Shown here: piece by piece, positions 4,840 through 40,009 of the stretch | Layout: every line of letters starts with the position of its first letter | Position numbering within the stretch: the first letter of the stretch is position 1 | NCBI GenBank assembly: GCA_964435575.1 | Contig: CAYSZS010000002.1 | Location: forward strand, 762 to 64,761 | Length of the DNA stretch: 64,000 bases | Reading direction: 5' to 3' | Origin: an uncultured Gammaproteobacteria bacterium | Lineage (GTDB): Bacteria > Patescibacteriota > Microgenomatia > UBA8517 | Made by a program: the position numbers and the translations under genes | The notes under the pieces: model-generated | What the model was told of the DNA's origin: nothing | Databases searched by the model: none | The model's input: only the letters and a program-made list of their open reading frames with translations

Positions 4840-4859
4840 CACTTGAAAGGCAGGTTTCT

Positions 4860-4931
4860 GCGGGAGTAGTACAGTGGTAGTACGCTTCCTTGCCAAGGAA
4901 GAGGTCGCGGGTTCAAATCCCGTCTCCCGCT
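4860..4931 (+). tRNA. tRNA-Gly(GCC)
   Basis: GCGGGAG..GTACAGTGGTAGTAC..CTTCC-TTGCCAA-GGAAG..GCGGGTTCAAATCCCGT-CTCCCGC-T. Confidence 0.85.
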
Positions 4932-4936
4932 CAGAA

Positions 4937-5974: not shown

Positions 5975-6068
5975 ATTAATACGCTTAAAAATATCGATTA
6001 TTTAGATGTACTTGTCAACTACGAAATGAAAAGTTAATAAATTTTTGATAAAATACAGAGATATTATT

Positions 6069-6143
6069 GCCCCTGTAGCTCAATGGATAGAGCGGCTCCC
6101 TTCTAAGGAGTAGATGAGAGTTCGATTCCCTCCAGGGGCACCA
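6069..6143 (+). tRNA. tRNA-Arg(TCT), CCA encoded
   Basis: GCCCCTG..GCTCAATGGATAGAGC..GCTCC-CTTCTAA-GGAGT..TTCGATTCC..CAGGGGC-A-CCA. Confidence 0.85.
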
Positions 6144-6153
6144 TTTGTGCAAG

Positions 6154-7299: not shown

Positions 7300-7362
7300 G
7301 TTTGGAATTATATCAAAGAAGACTTCCTCCCACTCAAAGTTAGAAGCTAAATAAGCTTTTGG

Positions 7363-7746
7363 TTATTTTCTCTTATCCATGTACTGCCAAGCTTTGTATT
7401 GGACAAAATTAGCAATAACTGCAATTCCGGCAACGTACAGATAGCTTGCAATGCCGACACCGGTTATAAAGGCAAATCTGGCAATTAACCAAACAGTTGC
7501 AAAATTCATGACCAAATATGCCAGCATCATTGGCACGTTTTCTTTATACGGATACTCCAAGTCTTTTAAGAAAGCTTCGGTATGCCATAGCACTAAGTTC
7601 CAGATAAACCCGCTAAAGACGATTGCCTGATATGGCGCAAAGATGCTATTTCCGATGCTAACTGCGTTGGGTAAAAAAAGATTTGCCAAGTACAAAATTG
7701 CCGAGTTAATTAGCCAGAAACCTAAAAATTTCTGATAGCGTTTCAT
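7363..7746 (-). CDS. Hypothetical membrane protein
   Basis: Start at MKRYQKF, preceded by an AGGAGGGGGTGAG Shine-Dalgarno. 4 hydrophobic helices. Confidence 0.5.
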   Translation of the reverse strand: MKRYQKFLGFWLINSAILYLANLFLPNAVSIGNSIFAPYQAIVFSGFIWNLVLWHTEAFLKDLEYPYKENVPMMLAYLVMNFATVWLIARFAFITGVGIASYLYVAGIAVIANFVQYKAWQYMDKRK

Positions 7747-7942
7747 ATTCTCACCCCCTCCTATGGGATAGCTCACTTAGGAGTATCTAATGGGACCATG
7801 TTGGATAGCTTCGCCTACAACGCAAAGCGGTGCCAAGCTATGCTTATCCAACTGTGACCCTTACTTCTTTGCCAAAACTTATCTAAATTCAGTATAATAT
7901 AATTCAAGAGTTGAAAAAATAAGCAATACTGATGAGAAAATT

Positions 7943-8015
7943 GCCTCTGTAGCTCAACGGATAGAGCACCTGTCTTCGGAACAGGGAATGAGGGTTCGAT
8001 TCCCCCCAGAGGCAC
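7943..8015 (+). tRNA. tRNA-Arg(TCG)
   Basis: GCCTCTG..GCTCAACGGATAGAGC..CCTGT-CTTCGGA-ACAGG..GGGTTCGATTCCCC..CAGAGGC-A. Confidence 0.85.
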
Positions 8016-8180
8016 TGAAGGCAATTTTCGAATTTACTTAGATCCAGACAATAATACTGCAGAGGAAGGTAAGCCGGCACCCAAACATACTCCTAGTCCC
8101 GATTTTTTATATAATTCAAGAAATTAATCTCTCTTTTAGTTATTGACATAAGTTACCTGTAATGTGTTATATAACATAAA

Positions 8181-9902
8181 GTGAAGTTTATTATTGTCTC
8201 CGGTGGTGTACTATCTGGTCTCGGTAAGGGAGTAACTACGGCTTCAATTGGCCTCCTTCTTAAATCCCGCGGAATAAAAGTTACTGCCATGAAGTGTGAT
8301 ATGTACCTGAATATTGATGCTGGTACTATGAACCCTATTGAGCACGGTGAAGTCTTTGTTACCCACGACGGAGTTGAAACGGATCAAGACTTGGGTCATT
8401 ATGAACGCTTTATCAATGAAATTTTAACCAGGGAAAATTATTTGACAAACGGTCAGGTTTACAGGATTGTTTTGGACAAGGAAAGAGCTCTCGAGTACGG
8501 AGGTAAGTGCGTAGAGCCTTATCATCAAATACCTCCTGAAATAATTTTAAGATGGATTGCAGCAGGGCGAGTCCATAACGCCGACGTAGTTTTAATCGAA
8601 TTGGGCGGAACCGTTGGAGAGTATGAAGGACTTTTGTTTTTTGAAGCTGTTCGAAGAATTAAATTGAAAAGCCCCATGGATGTCATTTTGATTCATGTAG
8701 GCTATCTTCCTGTTCCTCCTTCAATCGGAGAGCTAAAATCAAAACCAATTCAACAGTCGGTTCAGATTTTAAATAGTTTAGGTTTAACGCCTGATATTAT
8801 AGTTGGGCGTGCAGAAAAAGAAATCGACCAAAAAAGGAAAGAAAAAATAGCTCTAGCATCCGGTGTTTTAGTAGAAAATATTATTTCAAACCCTGACGTT
8901 AATAGTATTTATGAAATCCCGATTGTTTTAAGAAAACAAAAGTTAGATGAAATAATTATTAAACAATTGGGTTTGAAAGCAAAAAGAGAAGATCTTCGGG
9001 ATTGGGAAATAATGCTGGAAAAATCCAAGAAAATCCGAGACGTTGTAAAAATTGGAATTGTCGGCAAATATCAAAAAACAGGTGATTATACTCTCGAAGA
9101 CAGTTACGTTTGTGTTGTTGAGAGTCTAAAACATGCAGGATTACATTTTAATGTACAACCGCGGTTTTCTTGGATTGATTCGGAAAGTTTGGAAGACTTA
9201 ACAGATTCTGAGATTAAGGATCGTTTGGGGGGAATGGATGCGATAGTGGTTCCTCAAGGGTGGGGAAGGCGTGGAGTCGAGGGGAAAATTAAAGCTGCAA
9301 AATATGCTCGGGAAAATAAACTTCCCTACCTTGGTCTTTGTTTTGGCATGCAAATGGCATCAATTGAGTTTGGCAGAAATGCCGTCGGACTTAAAAAAGC
9401 AAATTCTTCAGAGGTGGATCCAAGGACTCCTCATCCTGTTATTCATATAATGCCTAATCAACGAGATTATTTGAATAAAAAACAATATGGCGGAACGATT
9501 CGCCTTGGCGCTTGGCCCTGCGTAATTAGAAAAGGCACACTACTTGAAAAAGCTTATAAAAAATTTGGCGGAGGAAAATTCAGACCTTGGTACCAACCCA
9601 ATCCCCTGTTTAAAAACAAATCACCAATCACTAACCCGCCTGCCGGACGGGCAGGTCACGAATCACTAATCTTCGAGCGTCACCGCCACAGATACGAGTT
9701 TAATAATAAATACAAAAGGCTGTATGAAAAGAAAGGATTTGTTTTTTCAGGGACTTCACCGGACGGAAAGCTAGTTGAAGCAATTGAGTTGAAAGAACAT
9801 CCCTTTTTTGTCGGGACTCAATTCCACCCGGAATATTTGAGCCGTCCCCTATCCCCACATCCAATATTCTTATCCTTTATTGAAGCTATTGTGAATAAAT
9901 AG
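8181..9902 (+). CDS. pyrG: CTP synthase
   Basis: N-terminal synthetase domain (VSGGVLSGLGKG) and C-terminal GATase (GLCFGMQ); 573 aa; GTG start. Confidence 0.95.
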   Translation: MKFIIVSGGVLSGLGKGVTTASIGLLLKSRGIKVTAMKCDMYLNIDAGTMNPIEHGEVFVTHDGVETDQDLGHYERFINEILTRENYLTNGQVYRIVLDKERALEYGGKCVEPYHQIPPEIILRWIAAGRVHNADVVLIELGGTVGEYEGLLFFEAVRRIKLKSPMDVILIHVGYLPVPPSIGELKSKPIQQSVQILNSLGLTPDIIVGRAEKEIDQKRKEKIALASGVLVENIISNPDVNSIYEIPIVLRKQKLDEIIIKQLGLKAKREDLRDWEIMLEKSKKIRDVVKIGIVGKYQKTGDYTLEDSYVCVVESLKHAGLHFNVQPRFSWIDSESLEDLTDSEIKDRLGGMDAIVVPQGWGRRGVEGKIKAAKYARENKLPYLGLCFGMQMASIEFGRNAVGLKKANSSEVDPRTPHPVIHIMPNQRDYLNKKQYGGTIRLGAWPCVIRKGTLLEKAYKKFGGGKFRPWYQPNPLFKNKSPITNPPAGRAGHESLIFERHRHRYEFNNKYKRLYEKKGFVFSGTSPDGKLVEAIELKEHPFFVGTQFHPEYLSRPLSPHPIFLSFIEAIVNK

Positions 9903-10024
9903 TAAAATATACATGTATTCGTAATTATTTAAACAAAATTCCGTAGGAATTTTGAGAGGAGAAATTACGAAACGATAAGCAATAAGCGTAAGCGTATTGT
10001 GATAAGTGAAGTATATTTCGACGA

Positions 10025-10112
10025 GCCGAGGTGGCGGAATTGGTAGACGCGAGGGCCTTAAGAGCCCTTGTCCCGATGGGACGTGGGGGTTCGAGTCCCC
10101 CTTTCGGCACCA
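10025..10112 (+). tRNA. tRNA-Leu(TAA), type II, CCA encoded
   Basis: GCCGAGG..GCGGAATTGGTAGACGC..AGGGC-CTTAAGA-GCCCT, long variable arm, T-arm GGGGGTTCGAGTCCCCC, CCA. Confidence 0.9.
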
Positions 10113-10195
10113 CGGAGTGTGGCTCAGTTGGCAGAGCGCGCGCTTTGGGAGCGCGAGGTCCCCGGTTCGAATCCGGGCACTCCGACTCAATATTA
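10113..10195 (+). tRNA. tRNA-Pro(TGG), immediately abutting tRNA-Leu
   Basis: CGGAGTG..GCTCAGTTGGCAGAGC..CGCGC-TTTGGGA-GCGCG..CCCGGTTCGAATCCGGG-CACTCCG-A. Confidence 0.85.
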
Positions 10196-10249
10196 TTTGT
10201 TAAAAAGTTGTAAGCTTAAGCGGGCCTGCCCGCCGAAGCTTCAGCGTAG

Positions 10250-10323
10250 GCGGGATTAGTTGAGCGGTTCAACATTTGCTTTCCAAGCAAAGAAGAGGGG
10301 TTCGACTCCCCTATCCCGCTCCA
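10250..10323 (+). tRNA. tRNA-Gly(TCC), CCA encoded
   Basis: GCGGGAT..GTTGAGCGGTTCAAC..TTTGC-TTTCCAA-GCAAA..AGGGGTTCGACTCCCCT-ATCCCGC-T-CCA. Confidence 0.85.
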
Positions 10324-10381
10324 CTAGCATTAAGGGACAAGCTCTGCTTATAACGCCCCCAGCTGTGCGAAGAGAAGGAAG

Positions 10382-11329
10382 TTACTTTTCTTTTCCGACT
10401 ATAATGATTACGTCGTAAGTGGAGTCTTCTTCAAGAGTAGTATCGGATTTAACGACGTCATAAGTATCTGAAAGAGCACTCCTTATTTCATCAAAGACTT
10501 TTTCGGACAAATCTTTTTTTAGACTGATAGAAGTAGCGGTATAGTCGTATGACTGGGCATTTCCGGTTGTTATTTTATCTTCCATAAAACCACTTTCTGT
10601 GAGCAAATCTTTTGCCTTCCCCGCTACCCCTGCTGTTCCGGAGCCGTTAAGAACGCTGAGAGTTAGAGTGCTTATATCAACCTCTGTCTCCGGCTCCTGA
10701 GTCGGGCTGGGCGTTGAAGTTTCCTCCTTTTCAGGAGTTTCACTAATAGATTCCTCGCTAACCGATTGTTTATAATAGAAAATTCCTCCTACCAAAGCTC
10801 CCAAGATAAGAAGAATGATTAGAGTAAAAACTATAAACTTTGTATTTGGTCCGCCTTTTTTCTCTACCTCTTTTGTCGTATCCGGTCTGACTTCTTTGAG
10901 CCACTCTTTTATTTCGTCGGAGGATACATCCTCTTTCCCCTTTCCTTTTTCCTCGGTCATTTCTTGAGTAGGTGTTTCAGATTCAGACAGATCTTCCTTT
11001 TCCTTTTGAGGCTCCGGAGTTAGAACGCTTTCACTGGACTTGGCGGCACCCTCTGCTCCTGAAGCGATATCAGACGATTTTTGAGAATCAAGCTGACTAA
11101 ATGACGTTATTTTCGGAGTATCCTGAGAAGTTGATGCTCGAAGCTTGGTTTCTTCCTCATCTCTTGGTTTTGTTTCAGCTATACTTTCCGTAGATTCTTT
11201 CGCTGGAAGTTGAGTTTCAACTTCTTCCGGTTCTTCACTTATCTCCTCTACTTTTATTTTTGGTTTTGTCGCTTTGGTTTTATCAGCCATGCTTTTACCA
11301 TTGTGAAACATTTGGGGTTGCTTTGTCAA
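10382..11329 (-). CDS. LytR_C (LytR/CpsA/Psr C-terminal) domain protein with acidic disordered N-terminus and one TM segment
   Basis: C-terminal VLNGSGTAGVAGKAKDLL...GNA...TT pattern typical of LytR_C. E/S/T-rich low-complexity N-terminus. TM segment FIVFTLIILLILGALVGGIFYY. Confidence 0.55.
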   Translation of the reverse strand: MTKQPQMFHNGKSMADKTKATKPKIKVEEISEEPEEVETQLPAKESTESIAETKPRDEEETKLRASTSQDTPKITSFSQLDSQKSSDIASGAEGAAKSSESVLTPEPQKEKEDLSESETPTQEMTEEKGKGKEDVSSDEIKEWLKEVRPDTTKEVEKKGGPNTKFIVFTLIILLILGALVGGIFYYKQSVSEESISETPEKEETSTPSPTQEPETEVDISTLTLSVLNGSGTAGVAGKAKDLLTESGFMEDKITTGNAQSYDYTATSISLKKDLSEKVFDEIRSALSDTYDVVKSDTTLEEDSTYDVIIIVGKEK

Positions 11330-11370
11330 TACACCTGGGATTTGATAAAATACAAGGTGTAATTATTCAA

Positions 11371-11444
11371 GGTGGTGTGTGCCGAACGGTTTAGGCGCTG
11401 CTTTGTGGAGGCAGTTTTAGCGGGTTCGACTCCCGTACACCACC
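11371..11444 (+). tRNA. tRNA-His(GTG) with genomically encoded G-1
   Basis: Extra 5' G pairing with discriminator C (8-bp acceptor G-GTGGTGT/ACACCAC-C). Anticodon stem CTGCT/GGCAG with loop TTGTGGA. T-arm GCGGGTTCGACTCCCGT. Confidence 0.85.
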
Positions 11445-11521
11445 CAAGTTTTCTAGCCTCAAGCAAATATATTGAATTATTCCTACTTAAAATCGCGCTC
11501 GAACCAAAATATAATACTTTT

Positions 11522-28132: not shown

Positions 28133-28756
28133 ATGGCACCGGTAATTTATCAAAGACAGCGTCAGATTTTAGATTTTATCAGACAGTATATACAATCTAC
28201 CGGTTCTGCCCCTACTCTTAAAATAATTGCGAATGCTTTGGGCGTTTCTTCTTTGGCGACCGTACACGAGCATCTTACTTCCTTAGAAAATAAAAAGTTA
28301 ATAAGAAGAAAGCCCGGTAAAAGCCGTTCGATAGAGTTGGTCAACGTTGATAGCGAATATTCACAGGAAGGTATTGAAGTGCCAATTTTAGGTTATATCG
28401 CAGCCGGAGCACCGATTGAGCCATATACCGACCCTAATGCAAGTTTTGCGATACCATCTAATTTTGTTTCAGGAAAAAAACGTACTTATATACTTCAAGT
28501 AAAAGGAGAATCGATGATAGAGGAACAAATTCGTGATGGCGACTATGTAGTTATCGAGCAGGCAGAGGATGCGGTAAATGGAGATATTGTGGTAGCGCTA
28601 CTTGATAACGGTATGGCTACACTCAAGAGATTTTTCAGGGAAACGACAAGAATTAGGCTGGAACCAGCCAACGCCAAGATGAGCCCCATTTTTGTAAAAA
28701 ACGTAAAAATTCAGGGTAAGGTTGTGGGTCTTATCAGAAAGTACTACAAAAACTAA
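28133..28756 (+). CDS. lexA: LexA repressor (S24 peptidase)
   Basis: N-terminal wHTH. AG cleavage site (IAAGAP). Ser/Lys dyad region (KGESM...LKRF); 207 aa. Confidence 0.9.
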   Translation: MAPVIYQRQRQILDFIRQYIQSTGSAPTLKIIANALGVSSLATVHEHLTSLENKKLIRRKPGKSRSIELVNVDSEYSQEGIEVPILGYIAAGAPIEPYTDPNASFAIPSNFVSGKKRTYILQVKGESMIEEQIRDGDYVVIEQAEDAVNGDIVVALLDNGMATLKRFFRETTRIRLEPANAKMSPIFVKNVKIQGKVVGLIRKYYKN

Positions 28757-30420
28757 AAATCTCTTAAGTCGGAAAGTAGGTTACTCCCGGTCATGCTCGT
28801 TGGAGTTGGTAAACCTAAAAGATTAAGTATGGTGGGTGCGACGTCGGCGAGTATTCCGGTACGAAGCTTGTAGGATTTACCCAGAAGTTGATGCGAGATT
28901 GCGATGAAGGGGACCCGGCTTGTTGAATGTTCGGTGTCTATTTCGTTAGTGTCACGGTTTATTAGTTCTTCGGCGTTACCGTGGTCAGATGTAATAATTA
29001 AAGCCCCTCCATATCCCAAAATAAAATTGCTAAGTTTTCCGATACATTCGTCCACGACCTCAACAGCTTTTACGGTTGCTCCGATATTTCCTGTATGCCC
29101 CACCATGTCGGGGTTGGGAAAGTTGACAACTACAAATTTATAATCGGAAATAGACAATTTCTTTAGAAGTGTTTCTGTGAGTTCGTAAGCGCTCATTTCC
29201 GGCTTCTGATCGTATGTCGGAACTTTTGGTGAGGGTATGATTACTCTTTCTTCAAGGGGATATTCTTTTTCCCTTATGCCGTTAAAATAAAATGTGACAA
29301 ATCTTTCTTTTTCACTCTCGGTGGCTTTAAGTTGTCTTAAACTTGAGGTCGCAATGACTCCCGATATGGGCATGTCGATGATCTCCGGAGGAAATGCGGG
29401 TTTTGCTCCCGCATCCGTGATCGGTTTACCGTATTCCGTCATTGTTACAAAATATAGGTTTTTAGGTAATACGCCTCTATCAAACGGTTCTTGAGATTTG
29501 GGGGACTCTTGACTAATATGCGTTTTTTGGTATTTAACCAGGTAAGGGTCGTAATCAAAAACTATATTTGCTTTACTAAAATCTTTAAATACGAAGGTTT
29601 TTGTTAGCTGTCTGGGCCTATCTATTCTGAAATTAAAAAAAACGACCGCGTCGTTATCAGAAATTACGCTAAGAGGCTTTCCATCTTTATTCGTTATTAC
29701 CGAAGGATCTATGAATTCGTCGGTTTTTCCTTCCGAGTATGATATGTCGATTGCTTCTTCAGGTTCTTTGACAAGGTTACCTTCTCCTTTCATTAGGGCA
29801 AAATAGGCTTTGGCGGTTCTATCCCAACGCTGATCACGATCCATTGCCCAATACCTTCCCGTTATGGTGGCTATTTTGCCTACCGCTTCCTTTTTCAGAA
29901 CTTCCCTTAAACGCATGAGATAAGTTTTAGCGGCGGTTGGCGGCGAATCTCTGCCGTCGGTAAAAAGATGTAGGTAAAGCCTGTCAAATTTTAAAGTACG
30001 CGTTAAGCGGATTAGAGCAAAGAGGTGTTCAATATTGGAATGAACACCACCGGCGCCGAGAAGTCCCATAAAATGGAGGTTTGATGAAAATTTTTTGGCG
30101 TGTTCGATTGCGTTAGTCAGAATTTTATTTTCGAAAAAACTACCATCGGCGATGGCCATATTAATTCTTTCCAGATCCTGATAAACAATTCTTCCCGCTC
30201 CAAGATTTAAATGACCGGTCTCGGTATTTCCATCCTCAGCCCGAGGAAGTCCCACAGATTCCCCTGACGCTTCGAGCTCGGCATGCGGGTAAGATGCCCA
30301 GAATTTATCGAAATTAGGGGTATTTGCTTTGGTTATCGCATTACCGGGAGAGTCAGGCGCTATGCCCCAGCCGTCAAGTATAGCGAGTACTACAAATTTA
30401 CATCGTTGGGAAGAATTCAT
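28753..30420 (-). CDS. gpmI: 2,3-bisphosphoglycerate-independent phosphoglycerate mutase
   Basis: LAILDGWG, TDGRDS, HGNAE motifs; 555 aa. Confidence 0.9.
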   Translation of the reverse strand: MNSSQRCKFVVLAILDGWGIAPDSPGNAITKANTPNFDKFWASYPHAELEASGESVGLPRAEDGNTETGHLNLGAGRIVYQDLERINMAIADGSFFENKILTNAIEHAKKFSSNLHFMGLLGAGGVHSNIEHLFALIRLTRTLKFDRLYLHLFTDGRDSPPTAAKTYLMRLREVLKKEAVGKIATITGRYWAMDRDQRWDRTAKAYFALMKGEGNLVKEPEEAIDISYSEGKTDEFIDPSVITNKDGKPLSVISDNDAVVFFNFRIDRPRQLTKTFVFKDFSKANIVFDYDPYLVKYQKTHISQESPKSQEPFDRGVLPKNLYFVTMTEYGKPITDAGAKPAFPPEIIDMPISGVIATSSLRQLKATESEKERFVTFYFNGIREKEYPLEERVIIPSPKVPTYDQKPEMSAYELTETLLKKLSISDYKFVVVNFPNPDMVGHTGNIGATVKAVEVVDECIGKLSNFILGYGGALIITSDHGNAEELINRDTNEIDTEHSTSRVPFIAISHQLLGKSYKLRTGILADVAPTILNLLGLPTPTSMTGSNLLSDLRDF

Positions 30421-31691
30421 TGTGCCTTTTGTTGCAGGAGTTCAGCCTCAATTGACAAAAGCCTATTGTATTTGACTACGCGTTCGCCTCGGTTCGGTGC
30501 ACCAAATTTTGCATAGTCAGACCCGATTCCGACGGCAAAATCTGCTATAAACCAGTCATTGGTTTCTCCGCCCCTGTGGGATGTAATAATTTTCCAATTA
30601 GCTTCCTGAGAAATTTTTACGACCTTTAAAGTTTCAGTTATTGTTCCGACTTGATTGGGTTTGACTAGTATGGCATTACAGGAGCCCTCGCTTATTCCTT
30701 TTTCGACCCTTTCGAAATTGGTTGTGAGAAGGTCGTCGCCAACTACGACCAGTTGATCTTTAAAACTTTCTGATAATTTTTTCCACGATTCCCATGCGTC
30801 CTCATGAAAAGGATCCTCGATTTCGGCCAAGTGATACTGACTATTTATGTATTTGTAGTATTCTAAGAGTCCGTCGTCTGTAAGGGGTGCGGATTTGTCA
30901 CGAATTGTATACTCTCCGTTTTTATAAAAAACGTTTGCCGCTACATCAAGTCCGAAAAATACATCACGCCCGATTTGATAAGGCGTTTGTTTGACGGCTT
31001 CGTATAAAACTTCCAAGGCGTCGGCGTTGGTAAATAGATTGGGTGCGTAGCCGCCCTCTTCTCCGAAAGAATGAATCGCACCCCTTCTTTCCAGGTCTCT
31101 TCCCAATATTAGAAATATCTCAACGGCGCTCCTTAGAGAATCCGAAAAGGACTTTGAGGTTGCAGGGATAAGATGAAATTCCTGAAAATCTAAATTGCCG
31201 GCTCCGTGAAGCCCGCCTTCAATAAGTACAAAAACTGAAGACGGAATTCGAACTTCACCTTTGATGCCCACCCTTTTTGCCAGAGTGTTTATCCATAAAT
31301 AAAGCGGTTGTTTTGTTGCAAGGCTTGCCGCTTTAGTTACGGCAGTCGAGACTGAAAGAATCGCGTTTGCCCCGTATTTTGATTTATTGGGAGTTCCGTC
31401 AAGCTCGATGAGTCGAGAATCAACTCTTTCCTGATCTGTTGCGTCTGAACCCCACACACCGGGGCCTAATACGTCATTTACATTGGCAACGGCCTTACTG
31501 ACTCCCTTCCCTAGATATTTTTGTGCGTCGTTGTCCCTGAGTTCGAGGGCTTCATGGGTTCCTGTTGAAGTTCCGCTTGGAACTGAAGCTACCGCAGTTT
31601 CTCCAGTATCTAGCTGACAGGCAGCCTCAACAGTCGGAATGCCGCGGGAGTCAAGGATTTGTCTTGCCCAAACTTTTTGAATTTTAGCCAT
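30417..31691 (-). CDS. eno: Enolase
   Basis: ARQILDSRGIPTVE N-terminus; 424 aa; overlaps the gpmI start by 4 nt. Confidence 0.95.
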   Translation of the reverse strand: MAKIQKVWARQILDSRGIPTVEAACQLDTGETAVASVPSGTSTGTHEALELRDNDAQKYLGKGVSKAVANVNDVLGPGVWGSDATDQERVDSRLIELDGTPNKSKYGANAILSVSTAVTKAASLATKQPLYLWINTLAKRVGIKGEVRIPSSVFVLIEGGLHGAGNLDFQEFHLIPATSKSFSDSLRSAVEIFLILGRDLERRGAIHSFGEEGGYAPNLFTNADALEVLYEAVKQTPYQIGRDVFFGLDVAANVFYKNGEYTIRDKSAPLTDDGLLEYYKYINSQYHLAEIEDPFHEDAWESWKKLSESFKDQLVVVGDDLLTTNFERVEKGISEGSCNAILVKPNQVGTITETLKVVKISQEANWKIITSHRGGETNDWFIADFAVGIGSDYAKFGAPNRGERVVKYNRLLSIEAELLQQKAQ

Positions 31692-31717
31692 AACTTTATT
31701 TTATATTAACTACTAAT

Positions 31718-34036
31718 TTAGAGCTTATCAACCACCTCTTTTTCTGCTTCCATTATTACTTTTCGGGTTGTATTGACCGCGTCAGGATTCACCGAGATAG
31801 AAGTTATTCCGTATTTAACCAATTTTTTAACCAAATCTTCGTACTCAGATGGTGCTTGTCCGCAGATTGAGGAGGTTACGCCATGCTTGTTGCATTTTTT
31901 AATTACGCGCCTTAAGGACCAATTGACAACCGGAGATCTTTCGTTAAAGGCGCTGGCTACTTCGGCGTTATCACGATCGGTTCCCGTCAAAAGCATTGTC
32001 AGGTCATTTGAGCCTATCGACACTCCGTCAATTCCTACCTTAATAAATTCTTCGATCAAGATTACATTAGTTGGAATTTCGACCATCATCCAGAATTTAA
32101 AAGTGGTTGAGGCAAAAAGTCCTTCGGCAGCCACAAGTCTTCTTACCTGTGATAATTCTTCGGGTGATCGGACAAAAGGGACCATTAACCAAAGATTTTT
32201 ATATTTATCCCGAACTTTTTTTATAGCCGTGAGTTCTAAGTTAAAAACGTCTGGACTGGCGATGTATCTGAAAGCACCTCGAAATCCAAGCATAGGATTG
32301 GGTTCGATCGGTTCCCAATTAGCTCCACCGGGAAGAGACCGATATTCATTGGTCTTGAAATCAGTGGCTCTATAGACTACTGGTCTGGGATAAAATGCTT
32401 TACAAAACGTTTCCAGATCGTTTGCGAGTTTCTCTACAAAATGACCCTGGGTTTTTTTCTTTATTGCTTCTTTGGGGTGAATCCCAATGTTTGCAATCAT
32501 AAATTCGGCCCGTAAAAGCCCGACTCCGTCAACGTTTAATTTAGACATCTCTACCGCCAGCTCTTTTTCTGCCAGGTTGATGTAGAGTTTTGTTGCGGTT
32601 TTGCCTTTAATTTCCTCTTCAACTACCTCTTTTTTTTCTATTTTTATCTTCCCCCCGAGGTAAATAAGTCCTCTTTCTCCGTCAACAGTGACTACTGTTT
32701 CATCTTTCAATCGCTTGGTTGCCTCTTTGGTTCCGACAACGCAGGGTATTCCTAATTCTCTTGAAACGATGGCGGCGTGAGAAGTCATCCCGCCCTCGTC
32801 GGTTATAATTGCCGAGGCCTTTTTCATTGCAGGTACATAATCCGGTGAAGTCATCGGAGCGACCAATACATCTTTGTTTTTAACTTTATTAATTTCTTTT
32901 GGGCTAGAGAGAACTTTGACGGGGCCTGTTCCTATGCCGGGGCTTGCTCCTACTCCTGTTAATACGGGAACTTCCGCTATTTTTATTTTTTTATCGTCGG
33001 TTATATCGATGGTTACTTTTGTTTCTCCCGCTTTTCCTAGCGCAGTAACCGGTCTTGTTTGAACGATATATAGGTTTTGACCATCTTTGGCCCACTCTAT
33101 ATCTTGAGGAAAATAATAATGCTTTTGCAGGCGCTCGGCGAGTTTGGCCAATTTGATGATTTCATTGTCATTTAGTTTGGGTTTGTCGCTTAATCTTTCC
33201 GGAACACCGCTTTCTATGTTTTTTCCACCCTTTTTAATTAGCTGAATCTTCTGATCAGAAATCTCTTTTGAGAGAATTGAAAAGGTGTCTTTTTGAACGA
33301 CATACCTGTCTGGAACAACAGACCCTTGGACAATCATTTCTCCCAGTCCCCAAACGGATTCAATTACGATTCTATCCTTATCACTTGTAACCGGATCTAT
33401 TGAAAACATTACTCCGGAGACTTCTGACTGAATCATCTTTTGGACAATGACTGAAATTTTTACTTTTGAATGAGAGATTTTATTCTGTTCACGATAAAAA
33501 ATTGCCCGTGCTGTAAAAAGTGACGCCCAGCAGTCTCTGACTGCGACTAAAAGATTTGCGTCACCCTTTACATTCAAAAAGGTTGCCTGTTGGCCGGCGA
33601 ATGAGGCGCCTGGTAAGTCCTCGGCAGTTGCCGAAGATCGAACGGCAACCAGAGCCGATTTAAATATCCCCGACAGCTTCTTATAAGCTTGAATAACATC
33701 GCGGGAAACTTCTTCTGGAATTAGACTCGTTGTAATAATTTTTTCGATTCTTTTTGAGGCTTCTTGAAGTTGTTCGGCTTCATTGATGTCAGTTTTTTCT
33801 ATGAGATCGTTAATTTTTTTGGAAATTTGGTTTTTTTCCAAAAAGGCATCATATGCGGAAACAGTTATTGCAAAACCAGGAGGTACAGGAAAACTTGCTT
33901 GTGTCATCTCGCCAAGATTTGCTCCTTTGCCCCCGACTGAAGGAATATCGTCTTTATCAATGTCTTTGAAGAATTTAATTAAGGGTTGTTGGGCAGCCAT
34001 AATAAATAATGATACTAATAATTCGAATAATGCCAA
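31718..34036 (-). CDS. ppsA: Phosphoenolpyruvate synthase (pyruvate, water dikinase)
   Basis: N-terminal VGGKGANLGEM ATP-grasp, central phospho-His domain, C-terminal PEP-utilising TIM barrel; 772 aa. Confidence 0.8.
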   Translation of the reverse strand: MALFELLVSLFIMAAQQPLIKFFKDIDKDDIPSVGGKGANLGEMTQASFPVPPGFAITVSAYDAFLEKNQISKKINDLIEKTDINEAEQLQEASKRIEKIITTSLIPEEVSRDVIQAYKKLSGIFKSALVAVRSSATAEDLPGASFAGQQATFLNVKGDANLLVAVRDCWASLFTARAIFYREQNKISHSKVKISVIVQKMIQSEVSGVMFSIDPVTSDKDRIVIESVWGLGEMIVQGSVVPDRYVVQKDTFSILSKEISDQKIQLIKKGGKNIESGVPERLSDKPKLNDNEIIKLAKLAERLQKHYYFPQDIEWAKDGQNLYIVQTRPVTALGKAGETKVTIDITDDKKIKIAEVPVLTGVGASPGIGTGPVKVLSSPKEINKVKNKDVLVAPMTSPDYVPAMKKASAIITDEGGMTSHAAIVSRELGIPCVVGTKEATKRLKDETVVTVDGERGLIYLGGKIKIEKKEVVEEEIKGKTATKLYINLAEKELAVEMSKLNVDGVGLLRAEFMIANIGIHPKEAIKKKTQGHFVEKLANDLETFCKAFYPRPVVYRATDFKTNEYRSLPGGANWEPIEPNPMLGFRGAFRYIASPDVFNLELTAIKKVRDKYKNLWLMVPFVRSPEELSQVRRLVAAEGLFASTTFKFWMMVEIPTNVILIEEFIKVGIDGVSIGSNDLTMLLTGTDRDNAEVASAFNERSPVVNWSLRRVIKKCNKHGVTSSICGQAPSEYEDLVKKLVKYGITSISVNPDAVNTTRKVIMEAEKEVVDKL

Positions 34037-34270
34037 TGCATACTAATAGGTGCAAATATTATTTCGTAAGTAGGTAGCGGTAACGAAACCCGTATCGTAA
34101 AAATCGTCTTACGTCTTACGTAACCGAAACAGGCATCCTAACCCTAACCGCTAGACTATTTATTCGTATCCATTCGCAGCATTCGCATAAATTCGCAGAT
34201 TAGCATTATACTAAACCACTATATCACAAAACCTTAGTTATAAATCAAGAAGCATATCGAGAATGAATTA

Positions 34271-35329
34271 TTACCTAGACAACCTTTCTTTGAAATAATC
34301 TACCCAAGGGATTTCTAAAGGATCTTCATTATATAATTTTGCCAGGTAATATGAAATAAAAGATCCGAGAATAAATACTTCAAATAGCTGTTTTAACCTT
34401 GTATCCGAACGGGGGCTATAGAGAAGGTAGTCATAACCATTTTTGTTTACGACTTCAGATGTTATTTTATATCTTTTTTGGACTTTTTCCGAATAAAGAC
34501 TCGAGTTAAAAAAAAGGAATTTAAGGCCCCCTTTAATTTTAGCAGGGTTTTTAAGGCCTTCCAATAAATGGTGGTTAAGCTCTGGAATATCAAAGAGTGT
34601 CGAAAAAGTCTTTGAATTTTCGTTAAATTGATTTTTTATAGCATGGGCTATGCCGTATAAATGCTCGGAAGCAATTATTACCGGAACATAGTTTTTAAGA
34701 CTAGCTGCAAGTTTATAAGACAGATTTTTATCTGTATCGATATTTTCATGAAACTCCGTTAAGAATTCGTACATAGAGTTAATGGCCTCATCAATATCTT
34801 CTCTATCGATTGAAATGAATCCTAACTTATGAAATAAGGAAAAATAGGAGCCGATAGAATAGCCCAAAGACATTCGGGGTTCTTTTGAGGGATTATTTAT
34901 TGGGTTAAAGATATAGGCAGGAATATTATCTTTTTTGGCTAGTTCGGAGAGTTTTCCTCCTGTTGTTATACAAAGAATTTTGGCATTTCTCTTCAAGGCG
35001 TCGAATGTGGCGTTAAGAGTTTCTTCCGTATTACCTGAGTAGGAATAGGATATGACAAGCGTATTTTTATTGACGTAGTTTGGAAGATGATACTCTGTAT
35101 AAATTTCAATAGGGAGTCTTATTTTATCTACGATGAAAGAGTCTATGATTCTTGCGCCAAGAGCGCTACCTCCCATGCCGCTGACGACGACATTGTCAAC
35201 GTTTTTATAATCTTCCGGGATATATAAAGTATCAATTTCTTCCCAAGCTTGCTTTAGTTGAAGCGGATAAGCGCGAATAGTATCTGCAACTAATTTATAT
35301 TTTTGGTCAAGTAACTTTGCCTTGGACAT
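34271..35329 (-). CDS. Bifunctional phosphoglucose/phosphomannose isomerase (SIS domain, archaeal-type PGI/PMI)
   Basis: SGMGGSALGARI and SYSGNTEETL SIS motifs. Confidence 0.7.
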   Translation of the reverse strand: MSKAKLLDQKYKLVADTIRAYPLQLKQAWEEIDTLYIPEDYKNVDNVVVSGMGGSALGARIIDSFIVDKIRLPIEIYTEYHLPNYVNKNTLVISYSYSGNTEETLNATFDALKRNAKILCITTGGKLSELAKKDNIPAYIFNPINNPSKEPRMSLGYSIGSYFSLFHKLGFISIDREDIDEAINSMYEFLTEFHENIDTDKNLSYKLAASLKNYVPVIIASEHLYGIAHAIKNQFNENSKTFSTLFDIPELNHHLLEGLKNPAKIKGGLKFLFFNSSLYSEKVQKRYKITSEVVNKNGYDYLLYSPRSDTRLKQLFEVFILGSFISYYLAKLYNEDPLEIPWVDYFKERLSR

Positions 35330-35475
35330 AATTCATACTAGCCATTTATTCCTAAAATTTCAAGATAAAAAGTTAGTTTAGTAGTTTAAAAGATACATGA
35401 GCTTTGTTTATTTATAGGGTGAACTATTAAATTTAAATGATTCTTACTTAATATAAAATATTCAACTATTATGAC

Positions 35476-35505
35476 ACGATCGTTTAATTTTAGTTGATCG
35501 TAAAT
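35476..35505 (-). promoter_or_regulatory. Bipartite motif ACGATCGTT-N7-AGTTGATCGTAA, copy 1 (5 nt after the PaaX-like stop, ~150 nt upstream of pgi/pmi)
   Basis: Near-identical copy at 36286-36315. Contains the palindrome ACGATCGT. Confidence 0.45.
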
Positions 35506-35509
35506 CTAT

Positions 35510-36271
35510 CTAAAGCGTTTTATTTATAAGTCTGAGTGCGTTTTCCCTTGACCAGTGTTTGGGTAATAGATCCTTAGGAAGATGTGGGTCGGTTGATAAA
35601 GTTTCCACGTATATTTGAATAGCACTGGTAATAAGTTTTTTTCTTTTGTAATTTTTGGCTCGCGATGCAACCTTTATTTTATTTACTACTTTTTCGTAAT
35701 TTTTATTTATCTTTTTTAAATCCCATATTTTTTCAACTAAAGGCATAATTTTCCCGGCTAAAATCTTTTTTGCAGAAAGCACAAAAACACTATCACCCAA
35801 ACCGTGAAGTTCGAGGAACTCCCGTAAATCCTCTTCAAAATGGTAAGGGTTTATCCATACAGATTTTTGCATCATTCCAAAACCTAACTCGATAAGCTTT
35901 GTTCTTAGCAGATCCCTCGCCTTTCTTTGTTTTTCCGGAATATCAAATACTGCAATCATGAAATATCCATCCCATTTTTGATTTTTATAATGCAGCCTAA
36001 ATTTCCTTTTTAATTTTTTATTACCGGAAGAGGTAAGTATAAGGTACGCTCTACCGTGTTCATCAACTTTTCTTTCTATATCCCCGACGGAAAGCATATC
36101 CGAAACCTCTGTCAAGTAGCTGGTTTTCTTATATCTGGAAGGTATAAACCCGTATCGATTTTGCATTGCCGAAGGCAAAAATCCTCCTACCAGGCGAACT
36201 TCATCGAATAATTCACCGGAAAAAGCAGCGCTAATTAGAATATAATCCCTCAACCTCAAAAGTTTTCCCAC
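35510..36271 (-). CDS. PaaX-family-like transcriptional regulator
   Basis: C-terminal WDGYFMIAVFDIPEKQRKARDLLRTKLIELGFGMMQKSVWINP resembles the PaaX_C domain. Confidence 0.5.
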   Translation of the reverse strand: MGKLLRLRDYILISAAFSGELFDEVRLVGGFLPSAMQNRYGFIPSRYKKTSYLTEVSDMLSVGDIERKVDEHGRAYLILTSSGNKKLKRKFRLHYKNQKWDGYFMIAVFDIPEKQRKARDLLRTKLIELGFGMMQKSVWINPYHFEEDLREFLELHGLGDSVFVLSAKKILAGKIMPLVEKIWDLKKINKNYEKVVNKIKVASRAKNYKRKKLITSAIQIYVETLSTDPHLPKDLLPKHWSRENALRLINKTL

Positions 36272-36285
36272 TCAACTTTTTTACT

Positions 36286-36315
36286 ACGATCGTTATTTAA
36301 AAGTTGATCGTAATA
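36286..36315 (-). promoter_or_regulatory. Bipartite motif ACGATCGTT-N7-AGTTGATCGTAA, copy 2 (15-44 nt upstream of the PaaX-like start)
   Basis: Matches the 35476-35505 copy at all positions except the 7-nt AT spacer. Confidence 0.45.
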
Positions 36316-36372
36316 TTAATAATACCACGTCAGAGTAACCGATGTTGTAAATTAGTGAAGATCCTAAGTTGT

Positions 36373-37176
36373 TTATGATACTATGTCTATTATTCGATCC
36401 AGAATCCTGTGGTTATTTGAGGCAATAATGCCATTAAAAAAATTTCTGTTCAAACTCTTACCTCTCGAGTCAGTTATTAACGCACCTGCTTCTTGGGCTA
36501 CAAATAAGCCGGGTGCAAAGTCATGCCATTTTGGAGGATTACTTAAGTTTACGTATGCTTCTATTCCCCCTTGGGCAAGCCAGCAAAGGCCTGTATTTTC
36601 ATCGGACAAAGACCTCAGTCTATATGTCTTTTTACCGATTTCTGATAGCCTTTTGTAAGCGTTCTCATAGTTTTCTCTATTACGATGGTATAAGGGAAGA
36701 TAGCAAAATATAAAGGAATCCTCCAGTTTTTGGATTGAAGATACTTTTATACTTTTTCCGTTTAAAAAACTTCCAGTACCTTTTGCGGCACTAAATAGAC
36801 TTTCTTCGAAGGGCCTATAAACAACCGAAACAAGGAGCTCGTTTTTATATTCCAAGGCCATTGAGAAATTCCAAAGAGGAATGCCTCGTATATATTCTTT
36901 TGTGCCGTCCAAAGGGTCAATAATCCAGCGAAAGTCAGAAAGTTTGTTTATTTCACCTTTTTCTTCGGACAGGATACTATGATCAGGAAAATTTCTGGTT
37001 ATCTCGTTGATCACAAATTTTTCCGAAGCCAAATCCGTAGAAGTTACTATGTCTTTTCGATCTTTATATTTAACAATCCTGACTTTCTTTTGCTCTTTAA
37101 GAAGTATTTTTCCCGCTTCTTTTGCTAATTTTGTAGAAAATTCAAGAAAATCAATTAAATTTTGTTTAGAAAGCAT
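36373..37176 (-). CDS. Inositol monophosphatase / bisphosphate nucleotidase family protein
   Basis: WIIDPLDGT and metal-binding motifs; 267 aa. Confidence 0.75.
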   Translation of the reverse strand: MLSKQNLIDFLEFSTKLAKEAGKILLKEQKKVRIVKYKDRKDIVTSTDLASEKFVINEITRNFPDHSILSEEKGEINKLSDFRWIIDPLDGTKEYIRGIPLWNFSMALEYKNELLVSVVYRPFEESLFSAAKGTGSFLNGKSIKVSSIQKLEDSFIFCYLPLYHRNRENYENAYKRLSEIGKKTYRLRSLSDENTGLCWLAQGGIEAYVNLSNPPKWHDFAPGLFVAQEAGALITDSRGKSLNRNFFNGIIASNNHRILDRIIDIVS

Positions 37177-37185
37177 TATTAGAAA

Positions 37186-38532
37186 TCAGTCTCTTTTAAT
37201 AATATCTTTAACCAAACTGGTGCCTTTTTGGAAAAGAGATTCTGCTTTAGTTTCTGAATCACTTTCGGTAAAAATCCTGAACTCGGGTGCATTTTGGGAA
37301 GAACGGAAAAGAATCCATGTTGTTTGGTCGAGCCACATTTTTAATCCATCTCTTTCATCTATCTTGATTGCTTTAAATCTTGATTTAGCTTCCTTTAAAA
37401 TAACGTCTTGCTGTTCCCATTTATATTGAATTTTATCCTTAAAAGAGTAAAACTTAGGTAACTCCGAAATAAGTTTACTTAAGGATTTGTTTTTCTTTTT
37501 CAATATGTTTAAAAGTTTAATCGTTGTCGAACCACCATCTCTTGTCATTAATATTTCAGGGAAAATACATCCACCGTTTGGTTCAAATCCAATGGCGCTA
37601 CCTGTCGTTTTCATCTTTTCTATAACATAAGGTGCTCCTACTTTAGTGCGATAAACCTTTTTTTCTAAATGGTCAACAACTTGTGAAGTACTTATTGGCG
37701 TGACTACGGAATCGCCTTTTATATATTTTGCAATCAAAGTTGCGGAATAATCCCCGGGTATAAATTCAGAATTTTCGTCAACAAAAACTACCCTGTCGCC
37801 ATCAGCGTCGTAGCCTATGCCAAAATCCGCTTTCTCTTTTTTAACCGTCATTATCAATCCCATCATGTCAGGTTTATGCTCCGTGTCTCTTGCGTAAAAC
37901 TCTCCCTGTATAGTTGTATTTTGCTCAATGACATTAATTCCGAGCCTTTTTAGTACATATGGCATCGTGTCAGATTGTGCTCCATCGCCTGCGTCCACAA
38001 CTACTTTCCAGTTAGGGAAACTCCCGTTTGCTAATTTAACCAACATTTCTAGATATTCGTCTTTTGCGCGATTTTCGTTATGGATTTCGTATTCTTCACC
38101 TTCCTTAAATATAACTTTGTCTTTTAAAGAAGCATAAATACTTTCGATTTCTTTCTCGTGCTTTTTTAGAATTTCTTCGTTAAAAGCAAAAAATTTAATA
38201 CCATTTAAATTTGCTTGAATATGACTTCCAGAAACCATAATTGAAGATGAGTAATAATCACTTACAAGAAGTACAAAGCACATAGAAGGAACAGAAGTGG
38301 CTCCCTGGTCATAAACTTCTCTTCCCTCGTTAGTTAGTCCAGCTTCAATAGCCTCTTTAATACGGGGACTTGAACCTCTTGGATCCATTCCAGTTGCAAC
38401 CGCGCCTTCTTCTCCGTTTTGAGTTAGAAATTTTGCGAAAGTTCTGCCGATGTCAAAGCAAAACTGGTTAGTAAAAAGTTTTTCCGAATCGCCTCTAATT
38501 CCGCTTGTGCCGAATAATCCTCTTGTCATCAA
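37186..38532 (-). CDS. Phosphomannomutase/phosphoglucomutase (alpha-D-phosphohexomutase family)
   Basis: GTSGIRG, active-site SGSHIQ loop, GYDADGDR metal loop; 448 aa. Confidence 0.8.
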   Translation of the reverse strand: MMTRGLFGTSGIRGDSEKLFTNQFCFDIGRTFAKFLTQNGEEGAVATGMDPRGSSPRIKEAIEAGLTNEGREVYDQGATSVPSMCFVLLVSDYYSSSIMVSGSHIQANLNGIKFFAFNEEILKKHEKEIESIYASLKDKVIFKEGEEYEIHNENRAKDEYLEMLVKLANGSFPNWKVVVDAGDGAQSDTMPYVLKRLGINVIEQNTTIQGEFYARDTEHKPDMMGLIMTVKKEKADFGIGYDADGDRVVFVDENSEFIPGDYSATLIAKYIKGDSVVTPISTSQVVDHLEKKVYRTKVGAPYVIEKMKTTGSAIGFEPNGGCIFPEILMTRDGGSTTIKLLNILKKKNKSLSKLISELPKFYSFKDKIQYKWEQQDVILKEAKSRFKAIKIDERDGLKMWLDQTTWILFRSSQNAPEFRIFTESDSETKAESLFQKGTSLVKDIIKRD

Positions 38533-38534
38533 AT

Positions 38535-39206
38535 TTATTCTAATTTGGTTGCAATAATAAAATCAAGTAAATCACTTAAGTTTCCTTGAGAAGTTTTGGA
38601 TCTTACATCTGCTTCCGCCAATAAAGAAATAAGATTAGTTAATTGGAGATTAGTGAATTTATTTGCTTGGACTTTGAGTTTAACGATTCTCCACTCCGGA
38701 TATGTCATACTTTTGGAGTCTACTTTTATCCAATATAAGTCTCTAACCTGCTTTGCCAAAAGGGAAAAAACAAATTCTAAAGGTTGCGTTTTTACAATTT
38801 CATGAAGAAGCAGAAGTGAATTTCTTGCATTTCTTGGATAAAAAGAATCCAAAAACGACCAGATTAATTTTGGAAGTTTGAATTCTTCGACTTTATCTAC
38901 TTTAGGTAATGAGTTGATAAATGTTTCCGTAATGGTTCCGGGGTGATATATAATTAAAGTTGTATCTAATTTATCGGCTTTTAGCTTCATAAATTTTCTA
39001 ACGACCGCCCCTAAAAAAGTGATATTTTCGACGACAACCAGCTTTTCTTTTTCAAATAATGAATCAACAACCAAAGCTTCTGGAATGCTTCGGGCTGACG
39101 TAATTCTTTTGACATCCCAACCCCTTTTCTTTGCTTCCTTAATGAAAGTTAAAAGTCGTTCATAACTTTCCAATGTATTATCGCCGTGGAGAACAATTAT
39201 TTTCAT
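38535..39206 (-). CDS. DNA polymerase III delta subunit (HolA)-like, short form
   Basis: Weak resemblance of the C-terminal helical region (LLLLHEI...LLAEADVRSK) to HolA. Confidence 0.35.
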   Translation of the reverse strand: MKIIVLHGDNTLESYERLLTFIKEAKKRGWDVKRITSARSIPEALVVDSLFEKEKLVVVENITFLGAVVRKFMKLKADKLDTTLIIYHPGTITETFINSLPKVDKVEEFKLPKLIWSFLDSFYPRNARNSLLLLHEIVKTQPLEFVFSLLAKQVRDLYWIKVDSKSMTYPEWRIVKLKVQANKFTNLQLTNLISLLAEADVRSKTSQGNLSDLLDFIIATKLE

Positions 39207-39220
39207 TAGAGTAATTTAAT

Positions 39221-39652
39221 TCAACGATTTTTAAACGGTCGTTCTAAAACAGTTGAACGTTGATAATGAGCGAAAAGTTCCTCTACCCTGTCGTGGAAAT
39301 TTCTCTTGCCGCGCCTTCTTATATGCGGCAGTAAACTTCCTGAAAAATTTTTGGGAATATGGGCTATTTCGTGAAGTAATATTCTATCTTTTTCGCGCTC
39401 AGATAAATTATCAAATTTTTCACTTAAAACCTCAATTATATATGCCGGCTTTTGCTTAAGGGCAAGTTGCCAAATTTTTGACAGACCCCAGATTCTTGCA
39501 TAAGCCCTTGATGAAGAATTTAGCGAACGGAAGCAATATAGCGAAGAAGTTTTTACCCACTCTAGATTAAGTGATTTCTTTAAATGAAGTACCCTTTTTT
39601 TGATATCGGGAGCTGATTTCCACTCCACATTTACCCATTTTTTTCTTCGCAT
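39221..39652 (-). CDS. Putative Zn-metallopeptidase-like protein (SprT/DUF45-like HExxH)
   Basis: ILLHEIAHI motif; 143 aa. Confidence 0.3.
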   Translation of the reverse strand: MRRKKWVNVEWKSAPDIKKRVLHLKKSLNLEWVKTSSLYCFRSLNSSSRAYARIWGLSKIWQLALKQKPAYIIEVLSEKFDNLSEREKDRILLHEIAHIPKNFSGSLLPHIRRRGKRNFHDRVEELFAHYQRSTVLERPFKNR

Positions 39653-39754
39653 ACATTATAATTACTAAACGGTTATATGGTATGGTAATTCTGACTAATT
39701 ATTAACAACCTAACCATTTAGCCATGTAAATATTAAGCTATTATTCGTGTCGCG

Positions 39755-40009
39755 TTAAGTTATTTTATAAACTTCCGCGCCTTCTTTAAGTTCCTGACCA
39801 ACCTTTAATCCGACGACGTCTCCTTTTTTGGCGTTTTCTATCTGGTTGTGCTCGATTTGGATTGAAGAAACGTCTTGCTCGAATATATCTTCACCTCCTC
39901 TGACGAATTTAATTTTATCGCCGACCCCCAAGTCTGCGTCAAGTTCTACAATTGCAACGCCAATTTTATCGTAAAAATGAGTCACTTTTCCGACTTTAAA
40001 ATCAGCCAT
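39755..40009 (-). CDS. Small beta-barrel protein resembling EF-Tu domain 2
   Basis: 84 aa; GDKIKF...KKGDVVGLKVG pattern. Confidence 0.3.
   Translation of the reverse strand: MADFKVGKVTHFYDKIGVAIVELDADLGVGDKIKFVRGGEDIFEQDVSSIQIEHNQIENAKKGDVVGLKVGQELKEGAEVYKIT

Follow-up and report, generated by a model that had tools for sequence, protein, structure and literature searches.

Paired palindromes around a PaaX-like regulator gene of Patescibacteria probably serve as its cognate operators

A gene for a PaaX-like regulator in a 64,000-nucleotide stretch of DNA from a Woesebacteria-like genome (contig CAYSZS010000002.1; the whole stretch is called the window below) is bracketed by two copies of a palindromic repeat, and a third copy lies in the same gene cluster. 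We call the copies op2 (before the start of the gene), op1 (after its end) and op3 (before the operon upstream). Homologous loci across the Patescibacteria carry similar palindromes at the start and near the end of the gene, and the arms of these palindromes vary together with the protein. From this comparative evidence we consider it probable that op1, op2 and op3 are the cognate operators of the PaaX-like protein, through which it would repress its own gene and control the flanking operons, the sites acting together. Members of the Patescibacteria (the candidate phyla radiation, CPR) encode hardly any regulators and cannot be cultured on their own, and to our knowledge almost nothing is known about transcriptional regulation in the group.

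Results

A tripartite palindrome occurs three times in one gene cluster

A first-pass annotation of the window had described a bipartite motif, ACGATCGTT-N7-AGTTGATCGTAA, on both sides of the regulator gene. The pattern has exactly two matches in the window, both on the + strand (35476-35503 and 36286-36313), and none of 100 dinucleotide-preserving shuffles reached two or more. The boxes are indeed identical between the copies, and only the 7-nt spacer differs (TAATTTT versus ATTTAAA). The two boxes are real but make up only part of the element. Repeat finding gives a true repeat unit of 42 nt (Table 1), in which a TCGTAA tail follows a tripartite palindrome of 36 bp, TCAACT-N8-ACGATCGT-N8-AGTTGA; box 1 of the earlier motif is the palindrome centre, box 2 is one arm with the tail, and the left arm TCAACT had been missed. 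The arms are 6 bp each and 24 bp apart, and the spacers between arms and centre are AT-rich and nonsymmetric. The tail (an ACGATC half-core beside one arm) is common to op1 and op2, partial in op3 and in the homologous locus L016, and absent in locus L007.

The third copy, op3, had also been overlooked. It reads TCAACG-N8-ACGGTCGT-N8-AGTTGA on the + strand, with two mismatches, and none of 100 shuffles yielded three matches of the 36-bp palindrome. The repeat is real and nonrandom. Rather than the many scattered copies that would mark a generic repeat, the window holds three, all at gene boundaries within a single 3.8-kb cluster of sugar-phosphate genes, and a relaxed scan of the 64 kb found no further credible copy.

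Adding the left arm changes the distances between sites and genes. Read in gene orientation, op2 is TTACGA-TCAACT-N8-ACGATCGT-N8-AGTTGA, and its right arm directly adjoins the regulator's GTG start codon, with a gap of 0 nt and not the 15 nt given before. The position of op1, close to the stop codon and ahead of the next gene, stands with revised distances: it starts 6 nt past the stop codon of the regulator and ends 132 nt before the ATG of pgi/pmi. Op3 is 15 nt upstream of the ATG of a holA-like gene, and it is embedded in the last codons and the stop codon of an open reading frame (39221-39652) of the PhageMetallopep family.

The gene between the copies encodes a member of the PaaX family

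The earlier identification of the gene as PaaX-like was correct. The protein matches Pfam PaaX_M (PF20803, the central Cas2-like domain; 8.4e-23, 80.7 bits versus a cut-off of 24) and PaaX_C (PF08223, the C-terminal helical domain; 5.3e-7, 30.4 bits versus a cut-off of 22). Escherichia coli PaaX (PDB 8A39), with which its DPLLPxELLP motif aligns, is the best match both by profile (5e-13) and by structure (Foldseek E 3.2e-8, TMq 0.49), and a second solved relative is Rv0674 (3KFW, Foldseek E 1.1e-5). By its PaaX_M/PaaX_C architecture and overall fold the regulator belongs to the PaaX family, and the window holds one such gene only. The start codon is fixed by the N-terminus MGKLLRLRDY, which is conserved in 26 homologues. 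Residues 1-97 have no Pfam match; an AlphaFold2 (AF2) model based on a 26-sequence alignment has an overall predicted local distance difference test (pLDDT) score of 71 and gives this N-terminal part, with low confidence (pLDDT 40-55), a topology of three helices followed by two strands. We regard it as a putative winged-helix DNA-binding domain. In the central Cas2-like domain, an invariant FDIPE motif retains the Asp position of Cas2.

The protein is not an orthologue of the phenylacetate-operon repressor PaaX, for which phenylacetyl-CoA is the inducer: it scores 69.7 bits against TIGR02277, for which the equivalog cut-off is 264.55, and no paa genes are found nearby, the neighbours being PGI, PPDK, enolase, iPGM, PGM and IMPase. 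Nor is it a Cas2 protein, as it has 253 aa in three domains and no Cas family is found among the called genes within ±6 kb. Cas2 models match residues 104-140 only (TIGR01573, 27.1 bits versus a cut-off of 24.5; PADLOC Cas2, 1e-6), and Foldseek matches to Cas2 are confined to the central domain. The NCBI annotation of one homologue (P0008) as "CRISPR-associated endonuclease Cas2" is, judged by domain content, a misannotation of a three-domain PaaX-like regulator; its source is the TIGR01573 score, which for residues 104-140 narrowly exceeds the cut-off. A phage or defence association was likewise rejected: there is no PHROGs match, and PADLOC gives local Cas2 matches only.

Homologous loci carry cognate palindromes whose arms vary with the protein

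The homologues compared come from Patescibacteria, mostly from the Woese-, Levy-, Gottesman- and Daviesbacteria groups. A CGRYCG-centred palindrome is present upstream of the start codon in all 35 full-length loci (9 fetched by protein identity and 26 from GTDB genomes), within ∼50 nt of the start in most of them and at ∼95 nt in L010. Eight of the nine identity-fetched loci also have a similar palindrome after the gene. The neighbouring genes of these nine loci are unrelated (glycolysis genes, glycosyltransferases, GreA, HicAB, Cache sensors), and the palindromes are present nevertheless. Scanning each locus with its own upstream 40-mer, we found that 33 of 36 loci have another cognate copy, 636-952 bp downstream and located either behind the stop codon or within the 3' part of the coding sequence, with a shuffle background of at most 0.4 hits per locus. 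A comparison of PaaX-like neighbourhoods had been proposed in the first-pass annotation as a check on its operator reading, and these counts are in line with that reading.

While the CGRYCG centre is common to the family, the arms vary between species and even between paralogues of a single metagenome-assembled genome (MAG). The cognate copy was the best match in 23 of 31 loci, and arm identity was 17.1/22 for cognate copy pairs and 9.2/22 for noncognate pairs, the cognate figure being inflated by the detection of copy 2 through its similarity to copy 1. Putative recognition-helix groups in the protein track the arm groups (HLVWR with ATTTAAxTA, FSR(V/L) with TGTAxG, and SYLTEVS with TCAACT), and the helix SYLTKVS of L016 is paired with the arm GTTCAC; common descent confounds this covariation. 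The arms (0.6-0.94) and the core (0.85-0.92) show high mirror symmetry, and the spacers ∼0.45; such asymmetric spacers between symmetric parts fit a dyad-symmetric protein site and not a hairpin. Altogether, the palindromes are strictly associated and covary with the regulator over more than 60 loci. A strict scan of 54 remote homologues across Patescibacteria found two cognate palindromes 530-800 bp apart in 21 and one in 20, and the family comprises 231 representatives of 50%-identity clusters at E ≤ 1e-30.

Outside these loci, the perfect palindrome TCAACTATTTTGAGACGATCGTCTCAAAATAGTTGA recurs in the high-GC metagenome contigs L117, L166, L190 and L208 (GC 0.60-0.62), and in L166 it lies ∼280 bp upstream of a distant PaaX-like homologue. 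The pairing of protein and site may thus extend beyond low-GC Patescibacteria, as judged from these sequence matches. Among the matches listed by the exact-pattern metagenome scan, which covered contigs other than the window's own, most were chance ones in high-GC contigs. Distant PaaX-like homologues (30-40% identity in the central domain) again adjoin PPDK and/or enolase in L048, L058, L072 and L087 (two of these, L058 and L087, bear the label Saccharibacteria), a recurrence that hints at a link between the PaaX-like family and lower glycolysis.

Position of the second copy relative to the coding sequence and the next gene

Loci of the window's own clade have the second copy at the stop codon or immediately behind it. 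A clade with 35-40% identity has it within the coding sequence, 164-248 nt before the stop codon and in constant codon phase; the core there encodes D/G-R and falls in a linker of low conservation. Arms and core are preserved in these in-gene copies, and the example inspected (L031) is without the TTGACA hexamer of copy 1. The second copy is also kept beside a convergent next gene in L007, L025, L026, L030, L032 and L038. The first-pass annotation had taken the downstream copy for an operator of the next gene; that is too simple, because the copy persists beside convergent genes and inside coding sequences across the family, and simple control of the next gene cannot explain the pair. When promoter candidates were scored by their match to the sigma-70 consensus (out of 12), the means were 7.9 for copy 1 and 6.8 for copy 2, a modest discrimination. 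Copy 1 often embeds a sigma-70-like promoter whose -10 hexamer is 6-7 nt before the start codon (L009, L015, L007), which implies a leaderless mRNA.

Some loci have further sites. There are three in L025 and in L035, and third palindromes are found inside the dprA coding sequence in L021 (6331-6370) and L027 (8433-8472). The dprA palindromes of these two different MAGs are cognate to the local PaaX-like gene and lie between the IPDPP and VVGTRK motifs, in frame in L027 and with an apparent frameshift or split in L021. A solitary cognate-like site lies between the convergent lysS and HD genes (L099/L172/L207). In L099 (4798-4833) it is the fully palindromic TCAACTATTTTTCAACGACCGTTTGAAAATAGTTGA with an ACGTAA tail like that of the window's sites; the contig has 38% GC and comes from a Joint Genome Institute (JGI) metagenome; its identifier (Ga0209324) is next to those of samples in which the window's own sequence occurs, but it is not assignable to the window's genome.

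The regulator is absent, inverted or divergent in relatives

Three relatives found through their PGI (84, 81 and 77% identity) lack the regulator and keep the order RuvC ... metallopeptidase - holA - PGM ... PGI - PPDK - enolase - iPGM. In the 10-11 kb of each there is no palindrome of this type, nor a residual single one. The sites thus co-occur with the protein, as relatives without the one are also without the other, and the absence of a residual palindrome proves neither insertion nor loss. L007 has the same neighbours, with the regulator unit between them in inverted orientation. Identity to the L016 regulator is 60%, as against 86-92% for PGI, PPDK and enolase; for L007 and L009 it is 63-65%, as against 53-54% for PGI. 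With identities of regulator and neighbours so incongruent, simple vertical descent does not fit.

We considered two known kinds of mobile unit and rejected both. An integron cassette has attC sites with conserved outer cores (RYYYAAC...GTTRRRY) around a variable centre, and an intI integrase beside it; here the CGRYCG centre is conserved and the arms vary, and there is no integrase in the neighbourhood. An insertion sequence (IS), a miniature inverted-repeat transposable element (MITE) or a REPtron does not fit a unit without a transposase domain, with three local copies in 64 kb and, in one clade, a second copy inside the gene.

The slot between IMPase and PGI has a different occupant in the close relative L213 (ENA ERZ4903072, k141_2229697), where a 223-aa Y1_Tnp gene takes the place of the regulator (4155-4961). 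This gene is IS200-like/RAYT-like (3.6e-6) and has 37-nt repeats on either side, 84% identical and 770 bp apart, which suggests the slot as a hotspot for repeat-bracketed units of one gene. The PGM (26-27%) and IMPase (30-34%; 64% in L016) of the window are far less alike in L016 and L213-L215 than are PGI, PPDK and enolase (75-92%), and by these identities the holA-PGI stretch (window 36373-38532) is a variable region in the lineage.

Gene cluster and candidate promoters

All genes of the region are encoded by the minus strand. Their order with the sites, in the direction of transcription, is open reading frame 143 (ORF143), op3, holA-like - PGM/GlmM-like - IMPase/FBPase-family, op2, regulator, op1, and PGI/PMI - PPDK-like - enolase - iPGM (Table 1). 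The first gene past op1, previously annotated as pgi/pmi, is confirmed by domain matches as encoding a bifunctional PGI/PMI. We found no intrinsic terminator after the regulator gene. Elsewhere in the window, 12 tRNA genes are clustered in the first 11.5 kb (826-11446).

Table 1. Sites, genes and candidate promoter in the window
Feature	Position	Strand	Basis or remark
op2, promoter-proximal operator (putative)	36272..36313	-	Repeat finding, shuffles, homologue sites
op1, 3'-end operator (putative)	35462..35503	-	Same palindrome and tail as op2; cognate second copy in homologue loci
op3, third copy (putative operator)	39221..39256	-	Two mismatches; pattern scan with shuffles
PaaX-like regulator, 253 aa, GTG start	35510..36271	-	Pfam PaaX_M and PaaX_C; profile match to PDB 8A39
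Bifunctional phosphoglucose/phosphomannose isomerase (PGI/PMI)	34271..35329	-	Domain matches; first gene past op1
PPDK/PEP-synthase-like, enolase, iPGM	28753..34036	-	Co-directional after pgi; putative op1-controlled operon
holA-like (38535-39206), archaeal-type PGM/GlmM-like (37186-38532), IMPase/FBPase-family (36373-37176)	36373..39206	-	Putative op3-controlled operon upstream of the regulator
Candidate sigma-70-like pgi promoter, GTGTCA-16-TATATT	35450..35477	-	Consensus match only; -35 hexamer inside op1

Discussion

The most likely role of the protein, as far as comparison of sequences can tell, is that of a local, ligand-responsive repressor of the sugar-phosphate/gluconeogenic cluster. 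The winged-helix domains of a dimer would read the two 6-bp arms, and the conserved Cas2-like dimerisation domain would sit over the central ACGATCGT, a member of the family-wide CGRYCG core; we infer this assignment from the pairing of the conserved domain with the conserved centre and of the variable helix with the variable arms. Because op2 abuts the start codon, binding there would silence the regulator gene itself, in the manner of PaaX at Px in E. coli. Op1 would be the family-typical 3' operator and also overlaps the candidate promoter of pgi-ppdk-eno-ipgm, and op3 precedes holA-pgm-impase and would control it. That nearly every promoter site has another cognate site as its partner, 640-950 bp away, suggests that the bound dimers cooperate. 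They might do so by forming a DNA loop that encloses the regulator gene, or the distal site might act as a roadblock. The autoregulatory operator proposed in the first-pass annotation agrees with the presence of a site at the start of every homologue, the covariation with the helix, the absence of sites where there is no regulator, and a layout like that of the PaaX box. That proposal appears right in kind, but it gave an incomplete picture of the sites and oversimplified the downstream copy, and is in this sense partly supported.

Several points weigh against cognate operators. The support for the term operator is entirely comparative, and both the bias in detecting copy 2 and the common ancestry of helices and arms, mentioned above, reduce what the comparison can say. 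In the window, op2 has no convincing sigma-70 promoter within it (score 6/12). The second copy is found where no gene could be driven, beside convergent neighbours and in coding sequences, and cognate or cognate-like sites occur within dprA and, alone, between lysS and HD genes.

One alternative, which the first-pass annotation also raised in the form of a cassette boundary, is that the palindromes are the ends of an exchangeable or mobile site-gene-site module that is gained, lost, replaced or inverted as a block, through recombination between palindromes or a protein acting on them, with regulation of the neighbours being secondary. We regard this as unlikely; the two readings are not mutually exclusive. 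A module would account for the three close relatives (PGI 77-84% identical) in which the regulator and the palindromes are missing from the syntenic slot, although loss of the gene and decay of its operators accounts equally well for the patchy distribution. The inversion in L007, the incongruent identities in L016, L007 and L009, and the several paralogues per MAG in unrelated gene contexts also point to exchange, as does the Y1-transposase-like gene with its 37-nt flanking repeats in the same slot of L213; the holA-PGI region is, however, variable in general (PGM 26%, IMPase 30-64% identical). The FDIPE motif keeps the Cas2 Asp position that E. coli PaaX lacks, and the palindrome in dprA of L027 is in frame, both of which would suit a module. 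On the other side, a whole clade has its second copy 164-248 nt inside the gene, where it cannot be a cassette end, op3 is outside the unit, just three copies occur in 64 kb, and the neighbourhoods and relatives examined showed no recombinase, target-site duplication or empty site with a single palindrome. A stronger form, in which the unit is a self-contained, horizontally exchangeable module spread widely among Patescibacteria whose protein both represses and acts on its own flanking sites, seems to us distinctly unlikely. Such action would mean inversion, excision, insertion or in-frame seeding of palindromes into genes such as dprA.

The 3' copy might also work neither in a loop nor as an operator for the next gene but as a roadblock or insulator, halting transcripts that run on beyond the regulator gene or enter it in antisense direction. 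In most loci, those with convergent neighbours among them, the copy is at the end of the gene or slightly ahead of it, which would suit this role, as would the retention of arms and core in the in-gene copies, without the promoter hexamer in the one inspected, the solitary site between convergent genes in L099, and the missing terminator after the regulator gene. Yet with the in-gene copies as roadblocks, 164-248 nt ahead of the stop codon, the mRNA of the regulator itself would be cut short, and op1 in the window overlaps the candidate pgi promoter; we find this role highly doubtful. We strongly disfavour, as extremely improbable, the idea that the repeats are hairpin terminators, REP-like elements or chance or generic repeats unrelated to the regulator. 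The elements are palindromic, fully so in some relatives (L027, L099), and op3 and op2 fold somewhat better than shuffled sequences (z = -2.7 and -2.2), but op1 as RNA does not (z = -0.27), the spacers are asymmetric (∼0.45), and there is no Rfam match in 33900-39800. Neither a terminator nor a generic repeat would explain the strict association and covariation with the regulator, and chance is ruled out by the shuffle controls.

If the sites are operators as we propose, the window provides a concrete, predicted regulator-operator pair for core sugar-phosphate genes of a Woesebacteria-like organism. The sequence rule behind it, with arms read by the variable helix around an invariant CGRYCG centre, predicts cognate sites for the 231 cluster representatives. 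The family-wide layout would comprise two operators, one at the promoter and one at the regulator's own 3' end, and we know of no description of such a layout as a family trait. Should the paired sites mediate looping, or the unit be mobile, it would offer a compact new model system; if the protein did act on its own flanking sites, it would represent a so far unnoticed type of minimal element, selfish or domesticated, with a Cas2-like fold as its basis.

Parts of the unit resemble well-known systems. The central domain matches Cas2 models locally, but unlike Cas2, which stands alone with about 90-100 aa and is encoded beside cas1 and a CRISPR array, the regulator is a 253-aa protein with a putative DNA-binding domain and a helical domain on either side, and there is no cas1 within ±6 kb. 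A single gene between cognate palindromic repeats is reminiscent of REPtrons (a RAYT gene with REP palindromes), of which L213 has a RAYT-like example in the same slot, and of integron attC cassettes. In contrast to both, the unit is without a Y1 transposase or integrase, its copies are few and local, and the second copy can be in the gene; the conserved centre and variable arms are the reverse of attC.

The closest parallel is PaaX itself. The E. coli PaaX box is TGATTC-N27-GAATCA (PMC9493321). We recovered such boxes at Pz, Pa and Px of E. coli K-12, the Px box ending 1 nt before the paaX ATG, and found none at the 3' end of paaX. The regulator shares the three-domain fold family of the E. 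coli and Pseudomonas PaaX, and its sites share the layout of two 6-bp inverted repeats ∼2.5-3 helical turns apart (here TCAACT-N24-AGTTGA at three gene starts or boundaries), including an autoregulatory box that ends at the start codon of the regulator. Unlike in E. coli, the arms are 24 bp apart instead of 27 and enclose a conserved central CGRYCG element, the FDIPE motif is retained, the context is glycolysis/gluconeogenesis, and the second cognate site at the 3' end is near-universal in the Patescibacteria family. The literature searched contained no paper linking PaaX with Cas2 or with Patescibacteria.

As for the pairing of sites, operator pairs several hundred bp apart that work through DNA looping are found in lambda CI (OR/OL), LacI (O1/O2) and GalR (OE/OI); the distal operator is sometimes within a coding region, and the lambda pair brackets the repressor gene. 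The combination of a promoter-proximal operator with a distal cognate one several hundred bp away would be analogous. In those systems looping is a known property, whereas here looping and any oligomer beyond the dimer would be hypothetical. What further distinguishes the PaaX-like family is that the pairing is a hallmark of the whole family and that the distal site is at the 3' end of the regulator gene itself.

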